Positions 1,642 to 26,083 of a stretch of DNA of 34,673 nucleotides are shown in pieces; the first letter of the stretch is position 1; each line of letters opens with the position of its first letter. This stretch comes from a virus (taxonomy: Duplodnaviria > Heunggongvirae > Uroviricota > Caudoviricetes), in the IMG/VR virus record IMGVR_UViG_2563366915_000001. One strand, written 5' to 3'. The notes beneath the pieces were generated by a model, which was given only the letters and a program-made list of their open reading frames with translations, searched no databases and was not told the DNA's origin. Both the position numbers and the translations under genes were made by a program.

Positions 1642-1688
1642 TTTTACACCTCAGTTGGACGATGTTGAAATTTGCTGCTTTGAGGCCA

Positions 1689-1907: not shown

Positions 1908-1999
1908 CTTCCATTAATCCCTGAATTGTTGGTTAATACGCTTGAGGATGAATGCGAACAATAAAAAAGGAGCCTGTAGCTCCCTGATGATTTTGCTTT

Positions 2000-2221: not shown

Positions 2222-2297
2222 TGAACAAGTCCCATGTCGGCAAGCATAAGCACACAGAATATGAAGCCCGCTGCCAGAAAAATGCATTCCGTGGCTG

Positions 2298-2489: not shown

Positions 2490-2650
2490 ACCGCCTCCCG
2501 TTTATTATTTATCTTCTCAGCCAGCCGCTGTGCTTTCAGGGGATTTCTGATAACAGAAAGGCCGGGAAATACCCAGCCTCGCTTTGTAATGGAGTAGACG
2601 AAAGTGATCGCGCCTACCCGGATATTATCGTGAGGATGCGTCATCGCCAT
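2462..2650 (-). CDS. Hypothetical protein, lambda orf60a-like (62 aa)
   Basis: Translation [19 protein letters not shown]... matches my recollection of lambda orf60a; sits immediately downstream of exo with a short overlap. Confidence 0.45.
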
Positions 2651-4103: not shown

Positions 4104-4108
4104 CCGTT

Positions 4109-4405
4109 TTATACCTCTGAATCAATATCAACCTGGTGGTGAGCAATGGTTTCAACCATGTACCGGATGTGTTCTGCCATGCGCTCCTGAAACTCAACAT
4201 CGTCATCAAACGCACGGGTAATGGCTTTTTTGCTGGCCCCGTGGCGTTGCAAATGATCGATGCATAGCGATTCAAACAGGTGCTGGGGCAGGCCTTTTTC
4301 CATGTCGTCTGCCAGTTCTGCCTCTTTCTCTTCACGGGCGATCTGCTGGTAGTGACGCGCCCAGCTCTGAGCCTCAAGACGATCCTGAATGTAATAAGCG
4401 TTCAT
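4109..4405 (-). CDS. gam: Gam, host RecBCD inhibitor; only the short (GamS-length, 98 aa) form is encoded
   Basis: Translation [60 protein letters not shown]... matches lambda Gam from its internal Met. The in-frame upstream sequence has no start codon and reaches a stop at 4490-4492. Confidence 0.9.
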
Positions 4406-4480
4406 GGCTGAACTCCTGAAAATGGCTGTGAAAAAATCGCCCGCGGAATGCCAGGCTGATTCGGAAAACAGGAAAGGGGA

Positions 4481-4771
4481 TTAGTGATTCAGACCGTTGC
4501 CGCGTCCGTCGAGAAAAACTTCCACGAGCAAGTCACGGGTATAAGTGCGCTCAATGCCGCGATGCAGATAAAGTCGTCCGCGTAAATTAGCTGATGCAGT
4601 CCAGGTACCATCTTTGCGTTTGACCAGCATTCCTGGCATGACCGCACCGCGATTAACGGTCTGCGTTCCGTAATGTTGATGAACCATAAAAACTCCTGCC
4701 CGTAAGCTGGGCTGCTGAACATATAAAGACTTCTGCGCGTATTCAGGCGGTGGATGGCCGCCGGTTGTCAT
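4481..4771 (-). CDS. First ORF of the PL operon; kil-like by position, possibly N-terminally extended (96 aa)
   Basis: Ends where lambda kil ends relative to gam; no arginine-rich motif, so not N-like; no cIII-like sequence. Identity to lambda Kil is not verified. Confidence 0.4.
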   Translation of the reverse strand: MTTGGHPPPEYAQKSLYVQQPSLRAGVFMVHQHYGTQTVNRGAVMPGMLVKRKDGTWTASANLRGRLYLHRGIERTYTRDLLVEVFLDGRGNGLNH

Positions 4772-4964
4772 AACTAAGCCGCCTCGTTGAAGCGACTAAG
4801 GTATGAAATGTTGAGTTGATTTCAGCTGGTCACACCGACGTTCACGCGTCCGTTTCATCCCTCGCACTCCCCGAAGCCTGCTGAAATTCAAGCTGCGGAT
4901 CTAAGCGGTCATCGCAACGGTGAATCAGGTAGTTGCCGTATCGTTGTGTTGTTGCGATGAACTT

Positions 4965-5040
4965 ATTTAAAACTATAGTTGTTTTATCGTCAACAACAAA
5001 AGTTGTTTTATTGGTTGTTTTAGATATAACTGGTTGTATT
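4965..5040 (-). promoter_or_regulatory. Candidate PL promoter with OL-type operator repeats
   Basis: On the minus strand: TTGACG (plus 4988-4993), 17-nt spacer, TTAAAT (plus 4965-4970). Architecture ttgttgacNNaaaacaacNatagtttTAA parallels the PR candidate. GGTTGTT/AACAACC-type half sites recur (ttggttgtttt, actggttgtat, caacaacaaaag). Confidence 0.45.
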
Positions 5041-5130
5041 TAGGATGGATTTATTTTGTGACTTGAATCGCATAGCGATAACTGAAGCGAGGTTATGGTG
5101 GTTTTTTTAACGGTGTGTGTGATGAGGGGA

Positions 5131-5161
5131 GGGCAAAAGAAAACCCGGCACGGTGGCCGGG
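5131..5161 (-). terminator. Rho-independent terminator closing the cI-proximal two-gene cassette
   Basis: Stem cccggc/gccggg (5144-5149 / 5156-5161) with 6-nt loop; on the minus strand it is followed by ttttcttttgccc; sits 9 bp past the stop of the 310-aa ORF. Confidence 0.6.
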
Positions 5162-5169
5162 TAGCATCA

Positions 5170-6102
5170 CTATTCGATTTTTTTAACCATGTAGTTACGT
5201 CGTGATGTTCCTAATCTTTCATTGTGAATCTCAGAAACGCTTACTACGAGCGATATTCGTTCACCAACTTTATATTTACTTTGAATTTCTCCTAACATAT
5301 CAATCGGATAAGAAGCCTTTATTTTTCCAAGCTCGCTTGCAATCTCCAATTTCCCGTACATGGATAAAATAGCAAGTTCGCCTGATATATGCTCATCCGG
5401 TAGCTGAATGACCTTCGTTAAAGCTAAGCGAGCATTCAGTTTTTTTATATCTTCTGAAGAAATTGACACTTGTCTGGTACCATCACTTAAAGGTCCAATC
5501 CAAGTAAGATCAAAGTTAAGACTATATTTTTCGCACTCATTTATGATGTTTTTTAGGTTAGCTGTTGATTGCGAACCAATTTCGGCAATTTTAGCCGTGA
5601 ATGTTTCTTCATCAATGGATGAGAGTAGTGCAAAAATCTCCTTAACAGCATGACTGGATACTGTTTCGATGAGCTCGCAAGAACCAGTAGAAAAAGTAAC
5701 ACCTAACTTCGTCGAACCTGGACGCAAGTCTGCCAATCTCATGTCTAATGATTTTTTAACATCAATCGGCACACGACTAGAATCTTTCCCAGATCCAAGT
5801 CGGTAAACTGCTTTCTGTACAAGGGATGCGAGATTACCTGAAATTACAGATAGAATATCTAACGGAATAGACCCGAAATCGACCAAAACACCTTTTAATC
5901 TCAACTCCATGAAATCACGTAAAGGATGTTGGTTATCGATTGCACGTTGTCTCTCTCGGAGATCGCTCAGATGGGAGTCAAGTGATCTAAATATAATGTC
6001 ATCAGCAAATGATCTCCCCTTATTTTGAGCAAGCAGATCCACATCGCGTTGAATGAACGCAATTCGCTCCTTGAGGGAGTTGAATGTTTTTTCTTCGCTC
6101 AT
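5170..6102 (-). CDS. Uncharacterised 310-aa protein, second gene of the cassette in the rexAB slot
   Basis: Long ORF in AT-rich DNA; its ATG overlaps the stop of the upstream ORF (ATGA at 6099-6102); no motif I can recognise (no Walker A, no clear HEPN Rx4-6H, no TM segment). Confidence 0.7.
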   Translation of the reverse strand: MSEEKTFNSLKERIAFIQRDVDLLAQNKGRSFADDIIFRSLDSHLSDLRERQRAIDNQHPLRDFMELRLKGVLVDFGSIPLDILSVISGNLASLVQKAVYRLGSGKDSSRVPIDVKKSLDMRLADLRPGSTKLGVTFSTGSCELIETVSSHAVKEIFALLSSIDEETFTAKIAEIGSQSTANLKNIINECEKYSLNFDLTWIGPLSDGTRQVSISSEDIKKLNARLALTKVIQLPDEHISGELAILSMYGKLEIASELGKIKASYPIDMLGEIQSKYKVGERISLVVSVSEIHNERLGTSRRNYMVKKIE

Positions 6103-6572
6103 AACATTACCCTCACGAGGCCTTTAGGATTCTCCTTCCGATCAAAACCAAACCACCCTCTCCAGTAACTTCGCCTTTCACTATAATCGATTTCTGGATG
6201 ATTTTCAGGCAGCAAAAGAACGTCAATGCTGTAGTTTTCTTTAATAAAATCTCTATTTAACAATGAGCTGACCAATGGCATCAGCGTGTTTGGCAAAGAG
6301 TTTAGGGCCAAATAATCGACGACCACGAGTATATCTATGTCATCAGGTTCAGGTTTCTCTGTAGTGAATGAACCATCGATCCACACTTCAGAGAAACATA
6401 GACACTGCTGATTAACAAGTTTAAATTGCTCAATAAGCTGTATAAAATTACAGTATAGCATACTTCTTCTAACGGATTTTGGGAAGGTGTCGACACAAAG
6501 AGACTTGATGCCATCACTATCCATATCATGAAATCCTGCTGTAAGAAGAGGTGGGAAGCTAGGCTTTTCCAT
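6099..6572 (-). CDS. Putative minimal nucleotidyltransferase (pol-beta superfamily, MNT/SMODS-like), 157 aa
   Basis: Translation contains WIDGSFTTEKPEPDDIDILVVVD, i.e. hG[GS]-x9-DxD, the signature of pol-beta-fold NTases, with a further acidic stretch (DVLLLPEN) downstream; first gene after cI on the same strand. Confidence 0.65.
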   Translation of the reverse strand: MEKPSFPPLLTAGFHDMDSDGIKSLCVDTFPKSVRRSMLYCNFIQLIEQFKLVNQQCLCFSEVWIDGSFTTEKPEPDDIDILVVVDYLALNSLPNTLMPLVSSLLNRDFIKENYSIDVLLLPENHPEIDYSERRSYWRGWFGFDRKENPKGLVRVML

Positions 6573-6653
6573 CCTAAGTCCTTGTTTATGCCATATAGTG
6601 TTCTATTTAATATTCTTGAAAAGAGTGTGCCTTAAAAAGCTACAGGCTAATTA

Positions 6654-7343
6654 TTAACCATGCTTCCTGTACGTCTGCGGCATGCTCCCAATAACCTTAC
6701 CGAAGATGAACACCCGGTTCATCTCGTCTTTCTCGATCGGGTCCCACGGTGAGTAGCTTTTGTTATCAGAGATGACCAGCAGCTTATCCTTCATCATTTG
6801 CAGGCGCTTTACATGGGCTGTGTCGTCGTACAGAAACGCATAGATACCATCACCGTCGAAAGATTTAACTGTGATATCAACGAACAGCAGATCACCTGGT
6901 TCGATCGTTCCTGACATGCTGTCACCACGCACGTTAATGATGCGGATATTTTCCGCCTTCCTACCATCGAACATGTGACGAGCATCGTCAAACGAGTACT
7001 CAACCGAGCGTAGAACTTCTACAAACTCACGGTTGATGACTCCCGGCCCAGCACTGACTTCTATATCAAGAACGTCAATCTTGAAGTATTTGGAATGGCT
7101 GACAGTTGATTGTATTGGTTGCACTGTACTGTCTGACATATTTCCAACGCCAGAAGATAACCATTCTGCGCGCACACCCAAAGCGTTCGCGATCTCCACG
7201 ATTTTAGTTGTTTGATTAGCTTTCCCTGTTTCGATTTTCTGAATAGCAGCCTGGCTAACCCCGACCAAATCCCCAAGCGCCTTTTGTGTAAGGCCTCGCG
7301 CTAATCTGGCTTCTTTAAGTCTTTCTGAGAGTGTTGTTTTCAT
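6654..7343 (-). CDS. cI: CI-type prophage repressor, N-terminal HTH plus C-terminal S24/LexA-like peptidase; start taken at MKTTLSERL
   Basis: HTH region LTQKALGDLVGVSQAAIQKIETG; C-terminal autocleavage-domain pattern (RGDSMSGTIEPGDLLFVD...VKR); divergent from cro across an operator region. Confidence 0.9.
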   Translation of the reverse strand: MKTTLSERLKEARLARGLTQKALGDLVGVSQAAIQKIETGKANQTTKIVEIANALGVRAEWLSSGVGNMSDSTVQPIQSTVSHSKYFKIDVLDIEVSAGPGVINREFVEVLRSVEYSFDDARHMFDGRKAENIRIINVRGDSMSGTIEPGDLLFVDITVKSFDGDGIYAFLYDDTAHVKRLQMMKDKLLVISDNKSYSPWDPIEKDEMNRVFIFGKVIGSMPQTYRKHG

Positions 7344-7447
7344 AGTCCAAATGTACAACCAAGGTTTTATTCCATCAAACGAAAATGGTTGTTGACTAAA
7401 AACAACCATAGTTTTAATCTTGATTCAAATTAACCACGGAGGTTGTT
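7344..7447. promoter_or_regulatory. OR/PR/PRM region between cI and cro
   Basis: PR candidate TTGACT (7392-7397), 17-nt spacer, TAATCT (7415-7420); inverted repeat atggttgtt-N7-aacaaccat embraces the -35; same half sites as the PL region. Confidence 0.55.
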
Positions 7448-7678
7448 ATGAACCCAGCTATCAAAACAGCGATCAATATCGTTGGTTCACAAAAGAAACT
7501 GGGCGCTGCTTGCGAAGTTTCACAGCAGGCCGTCTATAAGTGGCTTCACAACAAAGCAAAGGTATCCCCTGAACATGTCGGCAGCATTGTTACGGCTACT
7601 GGTGGAGTAGTGAAGGCATACCAGATTCGCCCGGATCTTCCGAAGTTGTTTCCACACACCGAAAAGAACGCAGCTTAA
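7448..7678 (+). CDS. cro: Cro-like HTH regulator (76 aa)
   Basis: Small HTH protein (QKKLGAACEVSQQAVYKWL) transcribed divergently from cI immediately after PR. Confidence 0.75.
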   Translation: MNPAIKTAINIVGSQKKLGAACEVSQQAVYKWLHNKAKVSPEHVGSIVTATGGVVKAYQIRPDLPKLFPHTEKNAA

Positions 7679-7747
7679 ATTTCCATTTCACGCTCTTTAA
7701 CAATAAGCAATCAACTTAACAGTCAATTCAAACTAAAGGAGTCAATT

Positions 7748-8287
7748 ATGCAACCACTTCCATACCAACAGACTAGCGGATTTAGCCCGACTGCGGTGAT
7801 AAATCGTTCTCAAACAAAACAGGTGCCAGGCCACGAAAAAATCCGTGATGCCGTCCGCGCCTGGTCGGCTGTAGATAATCAGGATGTCGTTGCCACACTC
7901 ATTGTGAATGAGTATCGGGAGCAGGGCGGCGGCACCATCGATTTCCCTGATGATGTCAGCCGTGCACGCCAGAAGCTGTTCCGCTTCCTCGATAACAAAT
8001 TCGATTCTGAAAAATACCGAAATAACGTGCGTGAACTGACCCCGGCAATTCTGGCGGTACTACCGCTGGAATATCGCGGTTACCTGGTTGAGCAGGATAG
8101 CTTCATGGCTAGGTTGGCTGAAATGGAAAAGGAACTCAGTGAGGCAAAACAGGCTGTCATTCTCAACGCACCACGCCACCAGAAACTGAAGGAAATTAGT
8201 GAAGGTATTGTATCGATGTTTCGTGTGGACCCAGATCTGGCTGGTCCATTGATGGCGATGGTTACTACCATGCTGGGGGCGATATGA
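7748..8287 (+). CDS. YdaT-like protein occupying the cII position (179 aa)
   Basis: Motifs NEYREQGGG and LTPAILAVLPLEYR resemble what I recall of Rac YdaT; no lambda-cII-like sequence. Confidence 0.5.
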   Translation: MQPLPYQQTSGFSPTAVINRSQTKQVPGHEKIRDAVRAWSAVDNQDVVATLIVNEYREQGGGTIDFPDDVSRARQKLFRFLDNKFDSEKYRNNVRELTPAILAVLPLEYRGYLVEQDSFMARLAEMEKELSEAKQAVILNAPRHQKLKEISEGIVSMFRVDPDLAGPLMAMVTTMLGAI

Positions 8288-8373
8288 CAGGTTCAGAAAT
8301 GGCGAAAGCCGGTCTGCTGGAACAGAACCGACTTTCAGGTGCAAATCGTAACACACTCATTGCGGGAGGAATT

Positions 8374-9303
8374 ATGGCAAACACTGCTGAGATATTCAAT
8401 TTTCCAGTGCCGGATGCGGCACAAAAGGAGCCGCGCGTGGCAGATCTCGATGATGGTTATACGCGCATTGCAAATGAGTTGCTGGAAGCTGTGATGCTGG
8501 CCGGATTAACACAGCACCAGCTTCTGGTCTTCCTGGCTGTCATGCGCAAAACATATGGCTTTAATAAAAAACTGGATTGGGTGAGCAACGAGCAACTTTC
8601 CGAATTGACCGGGATATTGCCGCACAAGTGTTCTGCTGCAAAAAGCGTTCTGGTAAAGCGTGGGATTCTTATTCAGAGCGGGCGGAATATCGGCATTAAT
8701 AATGTGGTCAGTGAATGGTCAACATTACCCGAATCAGGTAAGAAAAATAAAGTTTACCTGAAAGAGGTAAATTTACCTGAATCAGGTAAGAAAAGTTTAC
8801 CCAAATCAGGTAAAGGCGTTTACCCGAATCAGGTAAACACAAAAGACAAACTAACAAAAGACAATATAAAACCTTTTTCGTCCGAGAATTCTGGCGAATC
8901 CTCTGACCAGCCAGAAAACGATCTTCCTGTGGTGAAACCGGATGCTGCAATTCAGAGCGGCAGCAAGTGGGGGACAGCAGAAGACCTGACCGCCGCAGAG
9001 TGGATGTTTGACATGGTGAAGACTATCGCACCATCAGCCAGAAAACCGAATTTTGCTGGGTGGGCTAACGATATCCGCCTGATGCGTGAACGTGACGGAC
9101 GTAACCACCGCGACATGTGCGTGCTGTTCCGCTGGGCCTGCCAGGACAACTTCTGGTCCGGTAACGTGCTGAGTCCGGCCAAACTCCGCGACAAGTGGAC
9201 CCAGCTCGAAATCAACCGGAACAAGCAACAGGCTGGCGTGACAGTCGGCAAACCAAAACTCGACCTGACAAACACTGACTGGATTTACGGGGTGGATCTA
9301 TGA
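8374..9303 (+). CDS. O: Replication initiator O; start taken at MANTAEIFNF with GGGAGGA RBS
   Basis: N-terminal O-type domain (ADLDDGY...LLVFLAVMRKTYGFNKK), lambda-like C-terminus ending ...DWIYGVDL, iteron array inside the gene; 4-bp overlap with P. Confidence 0.9.
   Translation: MANTAEIFNFPVPDAAQKEPRVADLDDGYTRIANELLEAVMLAGLTQHQLLVFLAVMRKTYGFNKKLDWVSNEQLSELTGILPHKCSAAKSVLVKRGILIQSGRNIGINNVVSEWSTLPESGKKNKVYLKEVNLPESGKKSLPKSGKGVYPNQVNTKDKLTKDNIKPFSSENSGESSDQPENDLPVVKPDAAIQSGSKWGTAEDLTAAEWMFDMVKTIAPSARKPNFAGWANDIRLMRERDGRNHRDMCVLFRWACQDNFWSGNVLSPAKLRDKWTQLEINRNKQQAGVTVGKPKLDLTNTDWIYGVDL
8725..8880. repeat. Replication origin: five 17-19-bp iterons (consensus tttacccgaatcaggtaa) followed by an A-rich segment, inside O
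   Basis: Direct repeats at 8725-8741, 8753-8770, 8772-8789, 8796-8813 and 8819-8836, then acacaaaagacaaactaacaaaagacaatataaaacc; same layout as lambda ori. Confidence 0.8.
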
Positions 9304-10001
9304 AAAACATCGCCGCACAGATGGTTAACTTTGACCGTGAGCAGATGCGTCGGATCGCCAACAACATGCCGGAACAGTATGACGAAAAGCCACAGGTACA
9401 GCAGGTAGCGCAGATCATCAACGGTGTGTTCAGCCAGTTACTGGCAACTTTCCCGGCGAGCCTGGCTAATCGTGAGCAGAACGAACTGAACGAAATCCGC
9501 CGCCAGTGGGTTCTGGCTTTCCGGGAAAACGGGATCACCACGATGGAACAGGTTAACGCAGGAATGCGCGTAGCCCGTCGGCAGAATCGACCATTCCTGC
9601 CATCCCCCGGACAGTTTGTAGCCTGGTGCCGGGAAGAAGCATCCGTTATTGCCGGACTACCAAACACCAGCGAGCTGGTTGATATGGTTTACGAGTATTG
9701 CCGGAAGCGTGGCCTGTATCCGGATGCAGAGTCTTATCCGTGGAAATCAAACGCGCACTACTGGCTGGTTACCAACCTGTATCAGAACATGCGGGCCAAT
9801 GCGCTTACTGATGCGGAATTACGGCGCAAGGCTGCCGATGAACTGACTTGTATGACCGCGCGAATTAACCGTGGTGAGGCGATACCTGAACCAGTAAAAC
9901 AACTTCCTGTCATGGGCGGTAGACCTCTAAATCGTGCACAGGCTCTGGCGAAGATCGCAGAAATCAAAGCGAAGTTCGGACTGAAAGGAGCAACTGTATG
10001 A
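9300..10001 (+). CDS. P: Replication protein P (DnaB helicase loader), 233 aa
   Basis: Translation MKNIAAQMVNFDREQMRRIANNMPEQYDEKPQVQQVAQIINGVFSQLLATFPASLAN... is near-identical to lambda P. Confidence 0.95.
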   Translation: MKNIAAQMVNFDREQMRRIANNMPEQYDEKPQVQQVAQIINGVFSQLLATFPASLANREQNELNEIRRQWVLAFRENGITTMEQVNAGMRVARRQNRPFLPSPGQFVAWCREEASVIAGLPNTSELVDMVYEYCRKRGLYPDAESYPWKSNAHYWLVTNLYQNMRANALTDAELRRKAADELTCMTARINRGEAIPEPVKQLPVMGGRPLNRAQALAKIAEIKAKFGLKGATV

Positions 10002-10300
10002 CGGGCAAAGAGGCAATTATTCATTACCTGGGGACGCATAAGAGCTTCTGTGCGCAGGACGTTGCTGCGGTAACAGGCGCAACAGTAACCAGTATAAATC
10101 AGGCTGCGGCTAAAATGGCACGGGCAGGAATCTTGGTCGTTGATGGTAAGGTCTGGCGAACGGTGTATTACCGGTTCGCTACCAGGGAAGAACGGGAAGG
10201 AAAGGTGAGCACGAATCTGATTTTCAAGGAGTGTCGCCAGAGTGCCGCGATGAAACGAGTGTTGGCAGTGTATGGAGATATGAACTTAAACTTGCTGTGA
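9998..10300 (+). CDS. ren: Ren (Rex-exclusion negation protein), 100 aa
   Basis: Translation MTGKEAIIHYLGTHKSFCAQDVAAVTGATVTSINQAAAKMARAG... matches lambda Ren. Confidence 0.9.
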   Translation: MTGKEAIIHYLGTHKSFCAQDVAAVTGATVTSINQAAAKMARAGILVVDGKVWRTVYYRFATREEREGKVSTNLIFKECRQSAAMKRVLAVYGDMNLNLL

Positions 10301-10548
10301 CGGTTTTCATCGGTAACACACCATGTAATCTAGCAGTCAGCTTAGAAATAGGAGCGGCAGTTAAAGATTTTTCAGTTAGTAGAAAATTACTGTTATTGCA
10401 GGGATCTAATCACCGGAGAGTCGTTCCATTTGTCTTATGATTACCTGAAGTCCGTTAGTTCGTTGGTAATCACCGTTTTTGTTAGAGAAGTAAGCATCGC
10501 TGACAAAATATTCTCAACGATGCCTGCTTTATTGCTACTACAAATTAA

Positions 10549-12051
10549 TTAAATTGCATCTGCAAACTCTGGGGTTTTTCGCTCAGGTATAATTGATGAG
10601 TTGCTGTTGTCACTTTTTTTATTTTCATGATTACGAATAGCCAATGACTCATTAAAGTCTTTTGCGACTGCTGTCTCAATAAATTCAATTTCTGAATCAG
10701 AGTGTTTTTTAACAGCTTCTTTGATCTCATCCAGAGTAACATAGAAAAACTCTTTTCTACGATTTACAAGATTGACTCTCTTTTTATCGAAGACATCATG
10801 TAGTTTTTTTTCTAATGATGGAGCGTCCTCCGAATAAATCATGGCATGTACATCAAAAATAAAAGGAACAGATGCATCACCGAGCTCATTTACACGGTCT
10901 TGCGGATCAAGACGTCGTGTCATGCCTATTTTATAAACATTCTCCCCAAAAGAACCTATGTTCGAAATAATATAAACATGACCTTGTTTGGTTTGTTGTG
11001 CCATGGATAATGCTCTTTGATGCTTTGATTCAGCCTGCGACAAACTCTGTTCTAGTTCGGCAATGCGATTTTCGAGGCGCTGCTTCATGTCACCAGTAAC
11101 TTTTTCCATTTCCTTTCTTGCAGCTTCAATTGCTTTTTTATAACGGCGCTCTTCTGCCTCTGCGTCTTGCATGGCCTTTTCTATTTCTCGTTGTGCACGC
11201 TCCTCCTCTCTCATTTGTGCCCTTATTTCTGCCTGTTCTTCTTTTTCTTTCTGTTTTTGCTCACGATATTCATGGGTAAGCCACAATTCCTCAAGTTTTT
11301 TATTGAGGTATTTAGTGTTTATATATATGTGATTTTGCTCGTTTAGTTTATTTATGGCCTCAAATGCCTTTGTGATGCGTTCTTCCATTTTAGTGATGTT
11401 TTTCCACGTGCAATTGCTAATTGCAGCATCACATTCATTATTAAATGCTCTAGTAGTTAGCCTGATATTTCTGTCTGTCATTTTTTTACCCTCTGCTCGA
11501 GAGCCTTCAACAGTCCATTGGGTTGTACAATATACTGCGCCAGAGTGGGTTTTATCCCGCAGCATTAATTTCTGTTCATCCCTGATGGATTTTATTTTGT
11601 TTTTAAATTGCTCTGAATCTTCAAAATTAAAATGAGGTTCGTAAAATCCTAGTTCGGCTAGCTCAACATCTTCTGAATAAATAGAAATTTGCCTTACTAG
11701 TTTATCATATATTTCTTTCTTCTCTTTATAAGTTCTTCTTAGCTCTTGGATTTGTTTATTGATACCATCCATTTTTTCAATGGTGTTTGTTAGTTCATTA
11801 TTGGCATTTTCTTTTACTTTTAGGGATTCTTCTTTTATTATGGAGCATTCTTGCTCTGTTTTCTCAATAAGCTTCTTACATTCTTCTTCTACATTAAAAT
11901 AATCTGCAAAGCGAGATTTGTATTCTTCATTTTTTTGATTGCTATCACTTAATTCTAATTGTATTTTTTTGATGCGTTTGATTGCAGCTATATAAAGAAC
12001 AAGAACAACCAATAAAAATATGATTGCAAGTAATAGAGGAGTTTGAGTCAT
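10549..12051 (-). CDS. Membrane-anchored coiled-coil protein with DUF4041-like region and C-terminal T5orf172 (GIY-YIG-like) domain, 500 aa
   Basis: N-terminal hydrophobic helix (LLLAIIFLLVVLVLYIAAI); long E/K/R/Q-rich heptad region; C-terminal GHVYIISNIGSFGENVYKIGMTRRLDPQDRVNELGDASVPFIFDVHAMIYSEDAPSLEKKLHDVFDKKRVNL...KEFFYVTLDEIKEAV fits T5orf172; antisense to the early-right operon; AT-rich. Confidence 0.8.
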   Translation of the reverse strand: MTQTPLLLAIIFLLVVLVLYIAAIKRIKKIQLELSDSNQKNEEYKSRFADYFNVEEECKKLIEKTEQECSIIKEESLKVKENANNELTNTIEKMDGINKQIQELRRTYKEKKEIYDKLVRQISIYSEDVELAELGFYEPHFNFEDSEQFKNKIKSIRDEQKLMLRDKTHSGAVYCTTQWTVEGSRAEGKKMTDRNIRLTTRAFNNECDAAISNCTWKNITKMEERITKAFEAINKLNEQNHIYINTKYLNKKLEELWLTHEYREQKQKEKEEQAEIRAQMREEERAQREIEKAMQDAEAEERRYKKAIEAARKEMEKVTGDMKQRLENRIAELEQSLSQAESKHQRALSMAQQTKQGHVYIISNIGSFGENVYKIGMTRRLDPQDRVNELGDASVPFIFDVHAMIYSEDAPSLEKKLHDVFDKKRVNLVNRRKEFFYVTLDEIKEAVKKHSDSEIEFIETAVAKDFNESLAIRNHENKKSDNSNSSIIPERKTPEFADAI

Positions 12052-12360
12052 TCGTGCTATTCCTTACGGACAATTTAAGACGTTTTGTATTAAATCCTGT
12101 TCAATGTGTATGCGGGTGATTGCTACCGCTTACAATCTTCATAATTATCAGTTAGATAGACTCGCTAGTAAATAATTTCATTTTTTGCAATATTCTTATT
12201 GAATATTTCAATTTATGAAATGAACTCTTTATCCTTTCAAGGTGAAAGGTTTCTTCTTCGGAAATATTTGCTCTCGTGTGACGTATAAAGACCTTTGATT
12301 TTCAAAAATCAGTAGGGAATAATATAGTTACTGTCGGCCTGAACACCCGGTGGTGGGGTT

Positions 12361-12450
12361 GCGCTAAACGGGGACGTTTATGCGCACACACAATCCAAAC
12401 TCTCATCTCCATTCACAGATGCAGAAATGCACCTACGATTTTTTACATTC
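12361..12450 (+). repeat. Direct repeat copy 1 (~90 bp, 7 mismatches versus copy 2 at 14295-14384)
   Basis: gcgctaaacggggacgtttatgcgcaca... aligned by eye with the ninB-proximal copy; carries a short ORF start (ATG 12380) after a GGGGA motif. Confidence 0.75.
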
Positions 12451-12863
12451 GGTGTTTTACTTCGACAGCCAGAATTGGGAGTCTCTATTCGTCTGGCGGC
12501 TAAAGGTGATATGGAAATCGTTATGTTTTGGCCTGAGGTAGTTGTAACTGTTGTAGCAGCTATGGATGTGATCATCATGGTGTCCATTTACTGGGGTTGA
12601 CGACATGATTTATCCGGCGCTATATTCTGTGCGTTGCCGCAAAATCGGCACACGGGATTGGCGTCCCGGGATACTACTCAACGCATACCGCGTTAAGCGG
12701 TTTTTTTGTGCGCTAAGCACGGCTATGCCCAAATTATGGTGGGCTGTGTGAGGGCTTCTTCGGAAGCGCCGGGTTTGAGTAGCCGGTTACGCCAACCTTA
12801 CACAGTTCACCACCAGTCGATTGGCGTCGTTGGTGGTGATGGTTAACCTGATGAGGTGATACT

Positions 12864-13472
12864 ATGACTACTCAATTAGCATTCCACAAAACGACGTTTA
12901 CCCCGATTTGCCACAATAACAGAATTTGGCTTACTGCCACTGAAGTTGGTTTAGCACTGGAATATGCGGACGATAAAGCAGTTCAGCGCATTTACTCTCG
13001 GCACTCAGATGAATTCACAGATATGATGACAAGGGTGGTCAAAGTGACCACCCCTCGTGGAATGCAGGAGTCTCGAGTATTTAGCCTTCGCGGAGCCCAT
13101 TTGATCGCCATGTTTGCTCGTACTCCTGTGGCCAAAGAATTCCGCCGCTGGGTTCTGGATATTCTCGATCGAGAAGTTCAACAATCCCCAATCACAAAAC
13201 AATTCACTGATAACGAACTTTGCACACTCGCCTGGTTATGGCGAGCAAGTGATACGATGTTAACCGCCTGCCAGAACGTTACGCCCCTTCTTCAGGTCGC
13301 AGAGCATCGCGAAGCAGGTAGATTCACTTCAATCGAACAAGAATATCCTCGGATACTCAACAGGGCGCGAGAAATCCTTGCCAGAGAAACGGCGCATGTA
13401 AAATTCCAACCGTGGCAGGATGATAAGTGGAGTCGTGTGTTACCATATTTCCGTCAGAATCTGTTGCAATAA
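12864..13472 (+). CDS. Bro-N domain antirepressor-like protein (202 aa)
   Basis: N-terminal region RIWLTATEVGLALEYADDKAVQRIYSRHSDEF...RGMQESRVFSLRGAHLIAMFARTPVAKEFRRWVLDIL fits the Bro-N/AntA pattern. Confidence 0.7.
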   Translation: MTTQLAFHKTTFTPICHNNRIWLTATEVGLALEYADDKAVQRIYSRHSDEFTDMMTRVVKVTTPRGMQESRVFSLRGAHLIAMFARTPVAKEFRRWVLDILDREVQQSPITKQFTDNELCTLAWLWRASDTMLTACQNVTPLLQVAEHREAGRFTSIEQEYPRILNRAREILARETAHVKFQPWQDDKWSRVLPYFRQNLLQ

Positions 13473-13492
13473 AGTCACTAGTTAGAAATACT

Positions 13493-13532
13493 GCCAGCAT
13501 TCTGCGATGACGGAAGTGCTGGCATTTTTTTT
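13493..13532 (+). terminator. Rho-independent terminator after the Bro-N gene
   Basis: Stem gccagca (13493-13499) / tgctggc (13517-13523), followed by an 8-T tract (13525-13532). Confidence 0.7.
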
Positions 13533-13707
13533 GGTAATGTGCGAGTCCATTTCATAAAATACGGGTACTGGAACTGGACGATATAATCTAAAAGATACCA
13601 TTATCAGTAGCATTAAAATCGCTATGTGCCGATACGGATATAAATTATATTGATTGTTCACATACCTTATTGGATATTACTGAGGGGTGTTTATATAAGG
13701 TGTAACG

Positions 13708-14217
13708 ATGATGTGGAACTTTGACAGTGCCGACTTAAGTGCAATAGCAGCAGGCATTTCTGCGTTTGGCACATTAGCCGCAGCGGGGTCGGCGCTTGCA
13801 AGTTGGTGCACGTCAAAAAAAGCGCTGCAGCTACAAAATAGAGTTTACCTTTATGAGTCTTTAAAGGCTTGCGCTGAGAGAGCCAATTCATCAGCTAAAG
13901 ATAAGCGCGGATCTGAATGGAGCGTTAATGATGCAGCGGATATCATCAGGTGCCTAGTACGGGCGATGGAGCTCATCAAGCAGGATAGCCAGCAGAAAGA
14001 AGGTAATCAGGCATTAATGTTGAAACAGTACTTTGTTAATCTGCTAATAATGGAACTGTACGAGGAAGTTCATAACGGTGATGCGGCTGATTCTGTTTTT
14101 AAAAGTACGGAACCTACACAAGTACTTGATAACTTATGGAGCAAATGGCAGGAGGCTATAGCTTTTTTTGATATTTGGAATTACCCAGTTGCGACTGAGG
14201 AAGACTTGGCAGACTAA
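13708..14217 (+). CDS. Uncharacterised 169-aa protein with hydrophobic N-terminal segment
   Basis: ORF downstream of the terminator in AT-rich DNA; N-terminal AIAAGISAFGTLAAAGSALASW suggests a TM or signal segment; no recognisable catalytic motif. Confidence 0.5.
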   Translation: MMWNFDSADLSAIAAGISAFGTLAAAGSALASWCTSKKALQLQNRVYLYESLKACAERANSSAKDKRGSEWSVNDAADIIRCLVRAMELIKQDSQQKEGNQALMLKQYFVNLLIMELYEEVHNGDAADSVFKSTEPTQVLDNLWSKWQEAIAFFDIWNYPVATEEDLAD

Positions 14218-14294
14218 TTTTCAGCACATTTGATTTCCAATAATCAACCAGCCATAATCATGCCATTGGAGCTTGAACAACTCCGGTGACTTCT

Positions 14295-14384
14295 GCGCTA
14301 AACGGGGACGTTTATGCGCACATACAATCCAAACTCTCTTCTCCCTTCACAGATGCAGAGATGCACCTGCGATTTTTTGCATCC
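14295..14384 (+). repeat. Direct repeat copy 2, immediately upstream of ninB
   Basis: See copy 1; about 92 percent identical over 90 bp. Confidence 0.75.
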
Positions 14385-14415
14385 AGCGTTTGACCTCTGC
14401 GGAGGTGAAGCGTGA
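14314..14415 (+). CDS. Small ORF (33 aa) inside repeat copy 2, YlcH-like by position; overlaps the ninB start
   Basis: ATG preceded by GGGGA; encodes [33 protein letters not shown]; DLP12 has a 33-aa ylcH in this position (recollection). Differences from copy 1 are mostly non-synonymous, so coding status is doubtful. Confidence 0.3.
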
Positions 14416-14867
14416 ACCTCCCACAAGACGGCATCAAATTGCATCGTGGTAACTTCACCGCTATCGGCCAGCAGATCCAGCCTTATCTGGAGGAAGGCAA
14501 ATGCTTTCGCATGGTGCTTAAACCGTGGCGTGAGAAACGCAGTCTTTCCCAGAATGCACTCAGCCACATGTGGTACAGCGAAATCAGTGAATACCTCATC
14601 AGCAGGGGTAAAACGTTCGCCACTCCAGCTTGGGTAAAAGATGCTCTCAAACACACATATCTCGGTTATGAAACCAAAGACCTGGTTGATGTCGTAACCG
14701 GTGAGATCACCACTATCCAGTCGTTACGCCATACCTCCGATCTTGATACCGGAGAGATGTATATCTTCCTGTGTAAGGTTGAAGCCTGGGCGGTGAATAT
14801 TGGCTGCCACCTGACTATTCCGCAGAGCTGCGAGTTCCAGCTGCTGCGCGACAAGCAGGAGGCGTAA
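14412..14867 (+). CDS. ninB: NinB-family protein (YbcN-like), GTG start
   Basis: Translation [55 protein letters not shown]... has the NinB-type RSLSQN motif and matches what I recall of DLP12 YbcN. Confidence 0.8.
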
Positions 14868-15037
14868 TGGCTACACCGCTTATTCGTGTCATGAACGGAC
14901 ACATCTACAGAGTACCAAATCGTCGTAAGCGTAAACCTGAGCTGAAGCCATCCGAAATACCAACACTGCTCGGATATACCGCCAGCTTGGTTGATAAAAA
15001 ATGGTTGCGACTGGCAGCAAGGAGGAATCATGGCTGA
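14867..15037 (+). CDS. ninE: NinE-like small protein (56 aa); not in the ORF track because it is under 60 aa
   Basis: Read manually: ATG at 14867 overlapping the ninB stop (TAATG), [56 protein letters not shown], stop at 15035-15037. Confidence 0.6.
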   Translation: MATPLIRVMNGHIYRVPNRRKRKPELKPSEIPTLLGYTASLVDKKWLRLAARRNHG

Positions 15038-15320
15038 TTTGAGAAAAGCAGCGCGTGGTCGGGAATGCCAGGTAAGAATCCCTGGCGTATGTAATGGCAA
15101 TTCTGAGACGTCTGTACTGGCACATATCCGGCTGGCTGGATTGTGCGGTACCGGTATCAAACCGCCAGACCTGATTGCCACCATTGCATGTTCTGCCTGC
15201 CACGACGAAATCGACCGCCGCACGCATTTTGTTGACGCTGGATATGCAAAAGAATGCGCGCTGGAAGGTATGGCGAGAACGCAGGTTATCTGGCTGAAAG
15301 AGAGGGTAATTAAGGCGTGA
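15030..15320 (+). CDS. ybcO: YbcO-like protein (DUF1364), cysteine-rich; start taken at MADLRK
   Basis: Translation [62 protein letters not shown]...; nin-region position between ninE and rusA. Confidence 0.7.
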
Positions 15321-15679
15321 ATACTTACCACATCACACTACCCTGGCCTCCGAGCAATAATCGCTATTACCGCCATAATCGCGGGCGCACGCACGTCAGC
15401 GCAGAGGGGCAGGCATACCGCGATAACGTCGCCCGAATCATTAAAAACGCAATGCTGGATATCGGCCTGGCTATGCCTGTGAAAATCCGCATTGAGTGCC
15501 ACATGCCGGATCGCCGTCGCCGTGACCTGGATAATCTGCAAAAAGCCGCTTTTGACGCACTCACTAAAGCAGGTTTCTGGCTGGATGATGCTCAGGTCGT
15601 TGATTACCGCGTTGTGAAGATGCCTGTTACCAAAGGTGGGAGGCTGGAACTGACCATCACCGAAATGGGGAATGAATGA
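15317..15679 (+). CDS. rusA: RusA Holliday-junction resolvase, 120 aa
   Basis: Translation [80 protein letters not shown]... matches E. coli RusA. Confidence 0.95.
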
Positions 15680-15816
15680 TGTTTGAGTTTAATATGGCAG
15701 AACTTCTTCGCCACCGCTGGGGGCGTCTGCGCTTATATCGTTTCCCCGGCTCTGTTTTGACCGATTACCGAATACTGAAGAATTACGCCAAAACACTGAC
15801 AGGAGCAGGAGTATGA
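15676..15816 (+). CDS. ylcG: YlcG-like small protein (46 aa)
   Basis: Read manually: [46 protein letters not shown], start overlapping the rusA stop. Confidence 0.5.
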
Positions 15817-15901
15817 AGTCAGAGATAACAATCAACTAATACTGTTTTGTTGATTTTTGCTTGTAATTGGCGTTCTGGTCTGAGTTTTGTGGAGTAAGTT
15901 G

Positions 15902-16285
15902 ATGCGTGATATTCAGATGGTTCTTGAGCGTTGGGGAGCGTGGGCGGCTAATAATCATGAAGATGTGACCTGGTCGTCCATTGCCGCCGGTTTTAAGGGA
16001 TTAATTCCTTCAAAAGTAAAATCTCGCCCGCAATGTTGTGACGATGACGCGATGATCATTTGCGGGTGCATGGCCCGTCTGAAAAAGAACAACAGCGATT
16101 TGCACGATTTATTAGTAGATTATTATGTAGTCGGTATGACATTCATGTCACTGGCAGGTAAGCATTGCTGCTCTGATGGTTATATCGGGAAAAGGTTACA
16201 AAAGGCTGAGGGCATAATTGAAGGGATGTTAATGGCATTAGATATCCGGTTAGAGATGGATATCGTTGTTAATAACTCTAATTAA
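15902..16285 (+). CDS. Q: Late antiterminator Q of the phage-82/DLP12 QuuD type (127 aa from MRDIQ)
   Basis: Translation [78 protein letters not shown]... matches my recollection of QuuD; sits between the nin genes and the lysis region. Confidence 0.85.
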
Positions 16286-16318
16286 TATGCCAATTGTTTA
16301 CTAAAAATTATTAAAAAT

Positions 16319-16336
16319 GGGGCGTTGAGACGCCCC
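16319..16336 (-). terminator. Hairpin with T-tract on the minus strand; possible terminator for nmpC
   Basis: ggggcg/cgcccc stem; on the minus strand it is followed by atttttaataattttt. Confidence 0.35.
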
Positions 16337-16424
16337 CAAAAATAAAGGGTAATATATAACAGAAGGTTTATATAGTTAGAAGCAAGGTTGTGCTTCTAAA
16401 GGAAGTGGCTTGAGGGAGCCACTT

Positions 16425-16464
16425 ATATGTTGGGGAGGCAACGCCTCCCGCAACATATCTTTTT
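16425..16464 (+). terminator. Strong rho-independent terminator about 180 bp downstream of Q; candidate tR' ending a short pR' leader (6S-like) RNA
   Basis: 15-bp stem (atatgttggggaggc / gcctcccgcaacatat, one bulge) with 3-nt loop, followed directly by ctttttcg; spacing from the Q stop is close to the ~194-nt lambda 6S RNA (recollection). Confidence 0.6.
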
Positions 16465-16474
16465 CGTAATCAGA

Positions 16475-17557
16475 TTAGAACTGGTAAACCAGACCTACAG
16501 CAACGATGTCATCAGTATCAATACCAGCTGTTTTGGTAAACTTACTATCGTCAATTAAGTTGATTTTGTAATCAACAAAAGTGGACATGTTTTTATTAAA
16601 GTAGTAAGTAGCACCGACATCGACATACTTGACTAAGTCTCGGTCACCATGAACACCAAGGTCTTTACCTTTTGACTGAAGGTAAGCAACAGATGGGCGC
16701 AGACCGAAGTCAAACTGATATTGTGCTACTGCTTCAAAGTTTTGTGCTTTGTTTGCAATATGGTTATTACCAAAAACGGTCATATTCTGAGTTTCAGAAT
16801 ATGTGGTAGCCAGATAGATATTGTTCGCATCATATTTCAGGCCTGCAGCCCATACTTCCGCATTTTTGCCGGAGGCATTGAATTTGCTCTTACCATAGGC
16901 GACCTGACCGTCAGTGCGATCTGATTTAGCATAGGTTGCACCCACGCCGAATCCTTCATACTCATAAGTAGTGGAGAAACCGAAACCATCACCATTGGCT
17001 TCAGTTACGTCAGTGCGGTCATTTTTACCCTGATACTGAGCAGCAAAGTTCAGGCCATCGACCAGACCAAAGAAGTCGTTGTTACGATAAGTTGCAACAC
17101 CAGTAGTGCGACCAGTCATGAACACATCTGTTTGGGTCCAGGTATCACCACCGAATTCTGGCAGGACGTCAGTCCACGCACCGATGTCGTATGCTACACC
17201 GTAGTTACGGCCGTAATCGATTGAGCCGTAATCACCAAATTTCAGGCCTGCAAATGCAAGACGGGTTTTGTCTTTGGAAGAACCTTGAGATTCAGCGCGG
17301 TTGCCTTTGAATTCATATTCCCACTGACCGAAACCAGTCAGTTGATCGTTGATTTGGGTTTCACCTTTGAAGCCAAGACGGGCATAAGTAGTATCACCAT
17401 CATCTGCATCATTAGAGGAGAAGTAGTGCTTAGCATTAACTTTCCCGTACAGATCCAGCTTGTTACTGTCTTTATTATAAATTTCAGCTGCCTGAGCAGA
17501 CATCGCCATCAGTACTGATGCAGCTACAGCAGAAATTGCCACTGTTAATTTTTTCAT
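16475..17557 (-). CDS. nmpC: Outer-membrane general porin of the OmpC/OmpF family, NmpC/Lc type, intact 360 aa with signal peptide
   Basis: Signal peptide [23 protein letters not shown], porin body and C-terminal ...AVGLVYQF beta-barrel signature; location between Q and the lysis genes as in DLP12/PA-2. Confidence 0.9.
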
Positions 17558-17986
17558 CGTGAGCCCTTTTTTTTGAACTATTATTAAAAAATGATGTCAC
17601 TGCGCGATAAATATTCATCTAATCAATGTGATTATTTCAAGATGTAAGTTTTGGTTTCTCGTTTAATTTGTGAAGTAGATCTCTATTTTTATCTGAACTT
17701 TTTTCTATCGAATCCTATTCATGGCTCTTGGCTGAATAAAAATAAATCTATTAGCCAATTTATATTAATGGCTGTTATTTATAAGTGCTCTATAATTTGA
17801 AGGTTCAATTTAAATTGGCTAAAAATAACGCTGGAAATTATTTGTTGGTTATTTGTTGAGATTTGCTTATGTATTTGTAGTGGTGTTTTCAATACTCGGT
17901 AGCATTCTCGCAAATATCATTTAGTGGTTTACGTACGTAAAAAATTGGTTATGCTGTTAAGAGTGGTTACTTCGTCACACAGCTTA

Positions 17987-18009
17987 AACCCGCCGTCGAG
18001 CGGGTTTTT
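17987..18009 (+). terminator. Hairpin plus T-tract upstream of the holin gene
   Basis: aacccgc (17987-17993) / gcgggtt (18000-18006) stem, followed by ttttccattttttg. Confidence 0.5.
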
Positions 18010-18130
18010 CCATTTTTTGAGTCTCGATATTAGCTGATAACCCAATACCTGAGTTATTCACTGACTCCGAGTCTGTTACGTTTCGTAGTATTCCCTCAAT
18101 TTACACCCGCTTTGTCTGCGAGGTGGGGTT

Positions 18131-18346
18131 ATGAAATCCATGGATAAGTTAACAACGGGTGTCGCCTATGGCACCTCAGCAGGTAGTGCCGGGTACTGGT
18201 TTTTACAGCTGCTCGATAAAGTCACGCCCTCACAGTGGGCAGCAATAGGTGTGCTGGGTAGCCTGGTATTTGGCCTGCTGACGTACCTGACAAACCTTTA
18301 TTTCAAGATTAAAGAAGATAAGCGCAAGGCTGCGAGAGGTGAATAA
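18131..18346 (+). CDS. Holin (71 aa, phage-21 S / EssD-like)
   Basis: Small protein with hydrophobic segments and charged C-terminus ([13 protein letters not shown]); its stop overlaps the endolysin start. Confidence 0.8.
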
Positions 18347-18680
18347 TGCCTCCATCATTACGAAAAGCTGTTGCTGCTGCTATTGGTGGCGGGGCTATTG
18401 CTATAGCATCTGTGTTAATCACTGGCCCAAGTGGTAACGATGGTCTGGAAGGTGTGAGACATAATCCTTACAAAGACATAGTTGGTGTATGGACTGTATG
18501 TTACGGGCATACAGGAAAAGACATCATTCCCGGTAAAACGTATACCGAAGCAGAGTGCAAAGCCCTCCTGAATAAAGACCTTGCCACTGTCGCCAGACAA
18601 ATTAACCGGTACATCAAAGTCGATATACCGGAAACAACGCGCGGCGCTCTTTACTCGTTCGTCTACAACGTGGGTGCTGG
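18346..18680 (+). pseudogene. SAR-endolysin (T4-lysozyme-like) truncated by IS5 after about 111 codons
   Basis: N-terminal SAR domain [18 protein letters not shown] and the E/D/T catalytic region (GLEGV...[15 protein letters not shown]); the reading frame runs into the IS5 inverted repeat at 18681 and the native C-terminus is absent. Confidence 0.8.
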
Positions 18681-19875
<1,195 letters not shown>

Positions 19876-24771: not shown

Positions 24772-26083
24772 TCTCCCGCATATTGCCAGCATGGCCTTTA
24801 ATGAGCCGCTGATGCTTGAACCCGCCTATGCGCGGGTTTTCTTTTGTGCGCTTGCAGGCCAGCTTGGGATCAGCCGCCTGACGGATGCAGTATCCGGCGA
24901 CAGCCTGACTGCCGGAGAGGCACCCGCGGCGCTGGCGTTATCCGGTGATGATGACGGACCACGACAGGCCCGCAGTTATCAGGTCATGAACGGCATCGCC
25001 GTGCTGCCGGTGTCCGGTACGCTGGTCAGCCGGACGCGGGCGCTGCAGCCGTATTCGGGAATGACCGGTTACAATGGCATTATCGCCCGTCTGCAACAGG
25101 CTGCCAGCGATCCGATGGTGGACGGCATTCTGCTCGATATGGACACACCGGGCGGGATGGTGGCGGGAGCATTTGACTGTGCTGACATCATCGCCCGTGT
25201 GCGAGACATAAAACCGGTATGGGCGCTGGCCAACGACATGAACTGCAGTGCAGGTCAGCTGCTTGCCAGCGCCGCCTCCCGGCGTCTGGTCACGCAGACT
25301 GCCCGGACAGGCTCCATCGGCGTCATGATGGCTCACAGTAATTACGGTGCTGCCCTGGAGAAACAGGGCGTGGAAATCACGCTGATTTACAGCGGCAGCC
25401 ATAAGGTGGATGGCAATCCCTACAGCCATCTTCCGGATGACGTCCGGGAGACACTGCAGTCCCGGATGGACGCAACCCGCCAGATGTTTGCGCAGAAGGT
25501 GTCGGCATATACCGGCCTGTCTGTGCAGGCTGTGCTGGATACCGAGGCTGCAGTGTACAGCGGTCAGGAGGCCATTGATGCCGGACTGGCTGATGAACTT
25601 GTTAACAGCACCGATGCGATCACCGTCATGCGTGATGCACTGGATGCACGTAAATCCCGTCTCTCAGGAGGGCGAATGACCAAAGAGACTCAATCAACAA
25701 CTGTTTCAGCCACTGCTTCGCAGGCTGACATCACCACCGTGGAGCCTGCGAAGGAGGGCGAAAACGCCAGCGCGGCGCAGCCGGATGTGAACGCACAGAT
25801 CACCGCAGCGGTTGCGGCAGAAAACAGCCGCATTATGGGGATCCTCAACTGTGAGGAGGCTCACGGACGCGAAGAACAGGCGCGCGTTCTGGCAGAAACC
25901 CCCGGAATGACCGTGGAAACGGCCCGCCGCATTCTGGCCGCAGCACCACAGAGTGCACAGGCGCGCAGTGACACTGCGCTGGATCGTCTGATGCAGGGTG
26001 CACCGGCACCGCTGGCTGCAGGTAACCTGGCATCTGATACCAATAAAGAATTACTTAATACACCTGAAGCTTTACCGGTATAA
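24752..26083 (+). CDS. C: Head maturation protease / scaffold C (GTG start; the ORF track extends it upstream to 24638)
   Basis: Translation from VTAELRNLPHIASMAFNEPLMLEPAYARVFFCALAGQLGI... matches lambda gpC; ClpP/S49-like protease fold by established knowledge. Confidence 0.85.
25466..26083 (+). CDS. Nu3: Scaffold Nu3, in-frame internal start within C (start uncertain: 25466 or 25484)
   Basis: In lambda, Nu3 is the C-terminal ~200 codons of the C frame; in-frame ATGs are present at 25466 and 25484. Confidence 0.5.
   Translation: MDATRQMFAQKVSAYTGLSVQAVLDTEAAVYSGQEAIDAGLADELVNSTDAITVMRDALDARKSRLSGGRMTKETQSTTVSATASQADITTVEPAKEGENASAAQPDVNAQITAAVAAENSRIMGILNCEEAHGREEQARVLAETPGMTVETARRILAAAPQSAQARSDTALDRLMQGAPAPLAAGNLASDTNKELLNTPEALPV

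Follow-up and report, generated by a model that had tools for sequence, protein, structure and literature searches.

The DNA analysed here, called the window, is a stretch of 34,673 nucleotides (IMG/VR record IMGVR_UViG_2563366915_000001) that runs from an integrase gene at its start to tail genes at its end. Positions 1-18680 are 99.94% identical to a complete lambdoid prophage that E. coli strain 118UI carries beside a tRNA-Arg gene, and the insertion site in 118UI is the DLP12 site of K-12, next to argU. Within this region a porin gene on the minus strand lies between the gene for the antiterminator Q and the gene for the holin S (Table 1), an order common to DLP12, the complete argU prophage of strain 118UI and functional phages. 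The gene is already known and its allele is a common one.

In DLP12 (qsr') of K-12, the nmpC gene has the same position and orientation between quuD and essD, and the Q gene, both intergenic regions, the late promoter pR' and the holin gene are 98-100% identical to those of the window. The gene order in PA-2 is also the same, so that an earlier note on this DNA was right that both carry nmpC/lc at this place. It was right as well that the K-12 gene is interrupted by IS5. There the element (IS5B) lies 58 nt from the 3' end of nmpC, whereas in the window the porin gene is unbroken and an IS5 breaks the lysozyme gene after 335 nt. Collinearity with 118UI stops at 18680. A deletion of 1,558 bp adjoins the IS5, and the window resumes at position 22440 of 118UI L001 (BLAST); compared with 118UI, the 3' third of the lysozyme gene, an Rz-type lysis gene, a small ORF and a DUF1398 gene have been deleted. 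The lysis cassette is broken and the porin cassette intact, which is the reverse of K-12.

Table 1. Positions of the porin gene, its flanking genes and the associated signals in the window
Feature	Position	Strand	Basis or remark
Q antiterminator gene, quuD type, 127 aa	15902-16285	+	PF06530 Phage_antitermQ, E 9.7e-54
Structured porin 3' UTR, candidate IpeX sRNA	16311-16474	-	Four hairpins and an intrinsic terminator
Intrinsic terminator of porin 3' UTR	Stem 16336-16319, T-run 16318-16313	-	Terminator scan
Bulged 15-bp hairpin followed by CTTTTT, candidate terminator of rightward transcription from Q	16425-16464	+	Sequence, fold
Porin gene, nmpC/lc allele, intact	16475-17557	-	ORF, Pfam, NCBIfam, structure alignment, allele comparisons
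Mature porin	16478-17488	-	N-terminus AEIYNK
Signal peptide of porin	17489-17557	-	23 aa, PA-2 lc annotation
Porin 5' UTR and promoter region	17558-17926	-	29% GC; 361/369 identical to K-12
Candidate porin promoter	-35 TTGAAA 17640-17635, -10 GAATAT 17616-17611, start near 17604	-	Read by eye
Late promoter pR'	17928-17970 (-35 TTTACG 17928-17933, -10 TATGCT 17950-17955, inferred start 17962)	+	Homology
qut-like block TAAGAGTGGTTAC	17958-17970	+	Invariant in window, SC370, mEp460 and phiP27
Hairpin AAACCCGCCG..CGGGTTT with T-run, candidate tR'	17986-18019	+	Terminator scan; 25 nt after pR' start
S21-type holin/antiholin gene, dual start MKSM	18131-18346	+	PF04971, E 2e-35; 214/216 identical to K-12 essD
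Lysozyme gene (rrrD type), 5' two-thirds, truncated by IS5	18346-18680	+	PF00959, model 3-83 of 125 only
IS5, 1195 bp	18681-19875	-	BLAST, 99.7% identical to K-12 IS5B; transposase NF033581, E 2.4e-109

The porin and its alleles

The porin gene is a single unbroken ORF of 360 aa with an ATG start and no internal stop (ORF listing of the window), and the Pfam profile PF00267 (Porin_1) is matched over its full length (model positions 1-337 of 337, E 1.9e-151). The completeness and intactness claimed for this copy in the earlier note are thus confirmed. The gene is an allele of nmpC/lc of lambdoid phages, and the protein belongs with OmpC, OmpF, PhoE and OmpD among the general diffusion porins, which would give it 16 strands. 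Solved structures of OmpC, OmpK37 and PhoE align with it from end to end (E about 1e-137 to 1e-133), and the alignments with OmpC and OmpK37 suggest that it folds as a trimeric 16-stranded beta-barrel. A signal peptide had also been proposed, and residues 1-23 indeed match, without a difference, the sig_peptide that the PA-2 lc record gives, and share 21 of 23 residues with the annotated sig_peptide of P7. The C-terminus, YQF, has the aromatic terminal residue expected for outer-membrane assembly. OmpD of Salmonella and OmpC, OmpF and PhoE of E. coli share family and architecture with the window porin, but they are chromosomal core genes and are regulated otherwise.

For comparison with K-12 NmpC, its two annotated fragments (1040 and 58 nt) were joined in silico, giving a repaired protein of 365 aa. 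The window porin is identical to it at 331 of 365 positions, including all of residues 1-148, differs by two small indels and is 5 aa shorter. Lc of PA-2 (GenBank J02580) has 90.7% protein identity to the window porin, and these alignments bear out the assignment to the nmpC/lc type that the gene had been given before. PA-2 lc (protein 2) is the classic lysogenic-conversion porin, and its gene order with R and Rz is that of the window module. PA-2 also shares the near-identical porin 5' region and has a 16-nt insertion in its holin leader relative to the window, but Lc carries the K-12-type variable segments, unlike the window porin. More distant is the homologue in the P1-like phage P7, with 81% identity. 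The laboratory phage 434B carries an nmpC::IS5 of the K-12 type, and its record, which is K-12-derived, annotates the nmpC gene as split after codon 346.

At least eight temperate phages with sequenced genomes (ev017, ev207, 2G7b, Perceval, PhiR11_1, PhiR49_1, PhiR57_1 and PhiR63_2) encode the same 360-aa protein without a single difference. In ev017, ev207, 2G7b, Perceval, PhiR11_1 and others the Q-porin-S-R-Rz module has ~96% DNA identity to the window; these are complete phages with intact lysis genes, whereas the window prophage has partly lost its lysis cassette. Among complete E. coli genomes, the porin gene is found in 2,503, with a copy at least 99% identical in 1,187 records, and 2,394 of 5,426 have the Q-porin-holin module at a coverage of at least 80%, counts by coverage that take in copies broken near the 3' end in the K-12 style.

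The flanks of the gene are strongly conserved relative to K-12. Identity is 382/384 nt in Q, 189/189 in the spacer between Q and the porin gene, 93/93 in the pR' block and 111/111 in the leader, and the porin 5' region and holin gene are similarly close (Table 1). Between 16502 and 17136, within the ORF, DNA identity to K-12 is just 58-88%, and the window gene is thus a mosaic allele within conserved flanks. In an alignment of six alleles the differences are clustered at residues 149-151, 181-190, 216-232, 263-267, 302-306 and 335-347, and several of these clusters fall at or beside the positions of indels in the alignment of OmpC with the window porin. On the OmpF/OmpC topology the clusters would correspond to loops L3-L8, or, in a narrower wording, to the surface loops L4-L8. 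Together with the OmpC indels, this suggests that the variable segments are surface loops. The motif LPEFGGD at residues 132-138 is invariant across the six alleles, and its PEFGGD part is an established marker of the constriction loop L3. A single-sequence AlphaFold2 model of the porin had a mean pLDDT of 32.8, too low for loop mapping.

Position of the late promoter

Whether the porin gene lies within the late transcript depends on the position of pR'. The window Q protein has 78% amino-acid identity to Q of the Stx2 phage SC370, and positions 17927-18012 of the window are homologous to a stretch of SC370 that its depositors annotated as pR' and a rho-independent terminator. The -35 hexamer TTTACG is shared, the -10 hexamer is TATGCT in the window versus TATCAT in SC370, and the hairpin with its T-run is conserved. 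The Q proteins of mEp460 and phiP27 are more distant (46-47% identical), and both phages also have the TAAGAGTGGTTAC block, which occurs once in the window.

The transcription start can be placed by way of the Sakai prophage Sp5, which is identical to SC370 over the pR' stretch (321/321). By dRNA-seq and Term-seq, the Sp5 transcript from the pR' start to the tR' 3' end is 258 nt long, with a start described as "closely associated with Q" (PMC7547250). In the sequence of Sp5 and SC370, the distance from the A of TAAGAG, 7 nt past the -10 hexamer, to the last T of the second terminator is exactly 258 nt; both published Sp5 coordinates are off from the current genome version by the same 142. By homology to this mapped start, pR' of the window would start at 17962, downstream of the porin cassette, and for that reason the late transcript would never cross the porin ORF. 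The earlier note had described the porin as embedded antisense in the late leader; with the ORF upstream of the start placed in this way, that description has to be given up. The Stx phages 933W and Sakai Sp5, whose pR'/tR' region is the source of the StxS sRNA, thus resemble the window in having a related Q (78%) and homologous -35, -10, start region and first hairpin. In Stx phages, however, pR' overlaps the end of Q and the cargo (tRNAs and stx) lies downstream of pR', whereas in the window the cargo lies upstream of it. A literature search on the promoters of DLP12 Q and essD found nothing.

SC370, mEp460 and phiP27 all conserve the hairpin at 17986-18019, and it should be tR' because no other terminator-like element occurs between pR' and the holin gene. 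Counter to this role, the homologous hairpin of Sp5 sits inside the 258-nt transcript (PMC7547250). No counterpart of the second terminator of Stx phages was seen in the window between pR' and the holin gene, and the 74-nt 3' segment of StxS had no match in the window by short-word BLAST, a search that also missed the homologous pR' block. The sole Rfam match in the window, to Trp_leader, fell on the pR' hairpin at chance level and was rejected.

Candidate expression signals and 3' UTR of the porin gene

A gap of 573 bp separates the ATG start codons of the porin and holin genes, in agreement with the ~570 bp of AT-rich upstream DNA that had been reported, but only ~369 bp of this gap is on the porin side. 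The remainder (17927-18130) consists of the late promoter, the hairpin and the holin leader. Over the porin side (17558-17926) the GC content is 29.0%, versus 50.3% for the whole window, and a region this AT-rich is compatible with silencing by H-NS. The candidate porin promoter (Table 1) has a weak -10 hexamer, and in a promoter scan no sigma-70 site for this gene scored above threshold.

Both CRP sites annotated by the PA-2 depositors are identical base for base in the window, at 17666-17686 and 17962-17982. The first would lie near -72 of the candidate porin start, and the second takes up positions +1 to +21 of the late transcript as inferred above. The best matches to CRP and OmpR (C1, F1) consensus sequences in 17558-17926 were no better than in dinucleotide shuffles (0.20-0.40 of the shuffles were at least as good), in a test of the best consensus matches; the two CRP sites are depositor annotation. 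The OmpR sites that might have been expected in this region thus find no support in the matches. Within the gene, codons 5-7 contain the heptamer CAGTGGC (17544-17538), which is complementary to the 5' end of RybB. In E. coli, nmpC mRNA is among the reported targets of RybB (PMC3333887).

On the other side of the gene, the ~165 nt that follow the porin stop codon are predicted to be highly structured (minimum free energy -64.7 kcal/mol, z = -10.2). The 189-nt stretch that includes this 3' UTR is the same in the quuD-nmpC spacer of K-12 DLP12, and PA-2 is also identical here. DLP12 encodes IpeX, which reviews describe as an sRNA of 167 nt that is transcribed from the porin promoter as a piece of the porin mRNA and processed afterwards (PMC12197685; PMC5069750), and that represses ompC and ompF (PMC5069750; PMC12197685). 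The porin 3' UTR of the window, with its ~165 nt, fits the reported location, origin and length, and is a candidate IpeX equivalent placed for being made from the porin promoter. In K-12, IS5 lies between the IpeX RNA and the porin promoter, whereas in the window the two are contiguous. Rfam searches of the whole window (gathering threshold) and of 16200-18200 (E<=1) gave no family in the porin cassette.

The homology of the P7 cassette extends from 63 nt upstream of the ATG to ~130 nt beyond the stop codon. The P7 copy of the 3' UTR is ~75% identical and keeps the hairpins; of 50 predicted pairs, 7 have changed in a compensatory manner. The structured 3' UTR has thus accompanied the porin gene into an unrelated, P1-like phage.

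Read on the plus strand, the first hairpin of the porin 3' UTR lies just before the porin ORF (16425-16464) and could stop rightward transcription from Q before it enters the porin ORF in antisense. The terminator pattern scan did not call this hairpin, possibly due to its bulge.

The porin cassette and the Q-pR' slot

The AT-rich promoter region, the porin ORF and the structured 3' UTR with its intrinsic terminator make up a cassette of ~1.66 kb (about 16262-17926). Homology of the window Q to that of SC370 stops ~7 codons before the stop codon (at ~aa 120 of 127), and because it ends early, the cassette takes the place of the last few Q codons and of the short Q-pR' junction found in 933W-type phages. 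We consider it highly probable that the locus as a whole is an intact nmpC/lc allele in a self-contained cassette that is divergent from pR', with a promoter of its own and an IpeX-type 3' UTR.

In this arrangement, transcription of the cassette would run leftward, convergent with Q and divergent from pR', and pR' would drive the holin and lysis genes rightward. Any expression of the porin would come from the promoter of the cassette, in the lysogen and apart from late transcription. As published studies of PA-2, DLP12 and other strains lead one to expect, the phage-encoded porin would be inserted into the outer membrane of the lysogen. Processing of the porin transcript would release IpeX and lead to less host OmpC and OmpF, and the change in porins would alter permeability and the surface receptors open to other phages.

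A different map would have pR' directly after Q and the porin gene in the late leader, so that the Q-modified transcript would run antisense through the porin and induction would silence it by collision. This is the default expectation, given that in lambda and in 933W-type phages pR' borders on the end of Q or overlaps with it, and the place of the porin gene between Q and S agrees with this map. It has very little probability in our view, because the homologue of the 933W/Sp5 pR', with its single TAAGAGTGGTTAC block, is found past the porin, and a scan of 16286-16474, between Q and the porin gene, found no plus-strand promoter-like site. The break in Q homology also argues that the original Q-pR' junction has been displaced, and two more phages with a related Q have cargo between Q and the TAAGAGTGGTTAC block. 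The idea that the gene is host ompC or a chromosomal paralogue, and not phage cargo, has a probability close to nil. It owes what appeal it has to annotation: the protein passes the cutoff of the NCBIfam OmpC subfamily (521 versus 484 bits) and scores under the PhoE and OmpF equivalog cutoffs, PGAP labels the gene ompC, and the RefSeq name is "porin OmpC". The OmpC model, however, is a subfamily model and not an equivalog; the gene is part of a lambdoid prophage, flanked by Q and the holin gene, and its product has 100% identity to the porins of isolated phages and 91% to NmpC and Lc. The RefSeq/PGAP identity was accordingly rejected on genomic context, and such naming by annotation pipelines can mislead porin-loss surveys in resistance studies.

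Harder to set aside is the possibility that the gene is intact but silent, a quiescent prophage gene, silenced by H-NS, whose product is normally absent from the outer membrane. The low GC content upstream and the weak core promoter fit this view, and so does the decay of the prophage, with a lysis cassette broken by IS5 and a deletion. Intact nmpC is also said to be quiescent in E. coli B. We nonetheless judge silence to be unlikely, with a minor but real chance of being correct. The ORF, the promoter region and the 3' UTR are conserved base for base in many genomes and in active phages, which argues for a maintained function. In CFT073, nmpC genes are expressed at the RNA and protein levels, preferentially at 37 C (PMC12890032), and NmpC is highly expressed in AW1.7 (PMC5093140). 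Given this expression of intact homologues, it is plausible that the window porin may act as an extra porin of its host.

As a textbook case of lysogenic conversion, the porin itself brings little that is new. An intact copy can give a lysogen a third general porin, and the linked 3' UTR sRNA can lower OmpC and OmpF too, with consequences for antibiotic entry, phage receptor availability and the reported heat resistance. The added value is modest and lies in the corrected anatomy, in which the cargo is upstream of pR' and linked to an IpeX-type 3' UTR, and in the mosaic allele. This anatomy, with the late promoter downstream of the porin cassette, extends to DLP12-type prophages, which are found in about half of complete E. 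coli genomes. Given this position, porin expression should be uncoupled from prophage induction, unlike that of Shiga toxin genes.

The slot between Q and pR' holds a gene for a GIY-YIG nuclease in phiP27 and a minus-strand gene of unknown function in mEp460. We tentatively entertain a joint reading, possible but less likely than not, in which the Q-pR' gap is a recurrent cargo slot for this Q family whose cargo would be expressed in the lysogen only, the porin and IpeX have been domesticated, and the allele clusters reflect recombinational swapping of loops. Such a slot would be set apart from the well-known pR'-to-S slot that holds stx, in that its cargo would escape late transcription. Retention of an intact porin-plus-IpeX unit while IS5 wrecked the lysis genes looks like domestication, and the swapping of loops between otherwise identical flanks could have taken place under phage or immune pressure.

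Cargo and possible control elements around the late promoter

Two further phages whose Q genes are related, mEp460 and phiP27, carry unrelated cargo in the interval from Q to the conserved block at pR', the Q-dependent late promoter, and this gap looks like a slot for cargo that has been used repeatedly. The 1986 record of PA-2, a lambdoid phage with the porin gene lc, annotates a 'CRP binding site' that corresponds to 17962-17982 in the window, which are positions +1 to +21 of the transcript inferred to start at pR'. The annotated site overlaps a block that is invariant in four Q-related phages, and it may be an element of Q utilisation, either instead of or in addition to a CRP site. The pR'-proximal hairpin of phage Sp5 (AACCCGCC..GCGGGTTTT) also has a copy matching at 22 of 23 nt at 24818-24840 (+) in the window. 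This copy falls within the head protease/scaffold ORF, and is probably a coding coincidence.

Coordinates of cargo, repeats, RNAs and the insertion element in the window and in two comparison sequences
Feature	Position	Strand	Details
PDC-M63A/B-like pair, 157 aa and 310 aa	window 5170-6572	-	genes overlap; E 7e-43 and 4e-42
PD-Lambda-1-like protein, 500 aa	window 10549-12051	-	PADLOC, E 1.9e-198
Direct repeat, 89 bp	window 12360-12448 and 14294-14382		copies about 93% identical
isrK Hfq-binding RNA and C4 antisense RNA, adjoining	window 12635-12817	+	Rfam, 58.7 bits and 74.8 bits
IS5	window 18681-19875		in lysozyme gene; remaining 5' part 18346-18680
mEp460 cargo, 308-aa ORF	L003 (mEp460_4F5) 462-2001	- in L003	within Q-pR' gap
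phiP27 cargo, GIY-YIG nuclease gene	L004 (phiP27) 644-2001		within Q-pR' gap

IS5 in the lysis genes and in phage 434B

Compared with the prophage of E. coli strain 118UI, which is 99.9% identical elsewhere, the window has lost 1,558 bp next to its IS5. This deletion took out the 3' third of the lysozyme gene and, with it, the Rz-type lysis gene, one small ORF and a DUF1398 gene. The prophage is probably lysis-defective.

A further IS5 is found in the sequenced laboratory phage 434B (OL657227; L007 2822-5118), where it splits nmpC after codon 346, exactly its position in K-12. The interrupted gene lies inside a stretch annotated 'region of 434 nonhomology', and the arrangement is consistent with acquisition of the Q-porin-lysis segment of DLP12 by the 434B stock from a K-12 host.

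Candidate defence genes and the antirepressor region

The PADLOC model for PD-Lambda-1 anti-phage defence is covered nearly end to end by a protein named in RefSeq as a DUF4041 protein. Its gene is cargo, with ren on one side and the antirepressor region on the other. The PDC-M63A/B-like genes, a candidate defence pair, are immediately 3' of the S24-family repressor gene (6654-7409), the place occupied in lambda by rexAB, directly downstream of the repressor gene.

Because the 89-bp direct repeat brackets the isrK/C4/antirepressor segment together with a 169-aa ORF, the sequence suggests that the intervening segment is a cassette, inserted or duplicated through recombination. Within it, the two RNAs are immediately 5' of a P22AR-type antirepressor-like ORF (12864-13472).
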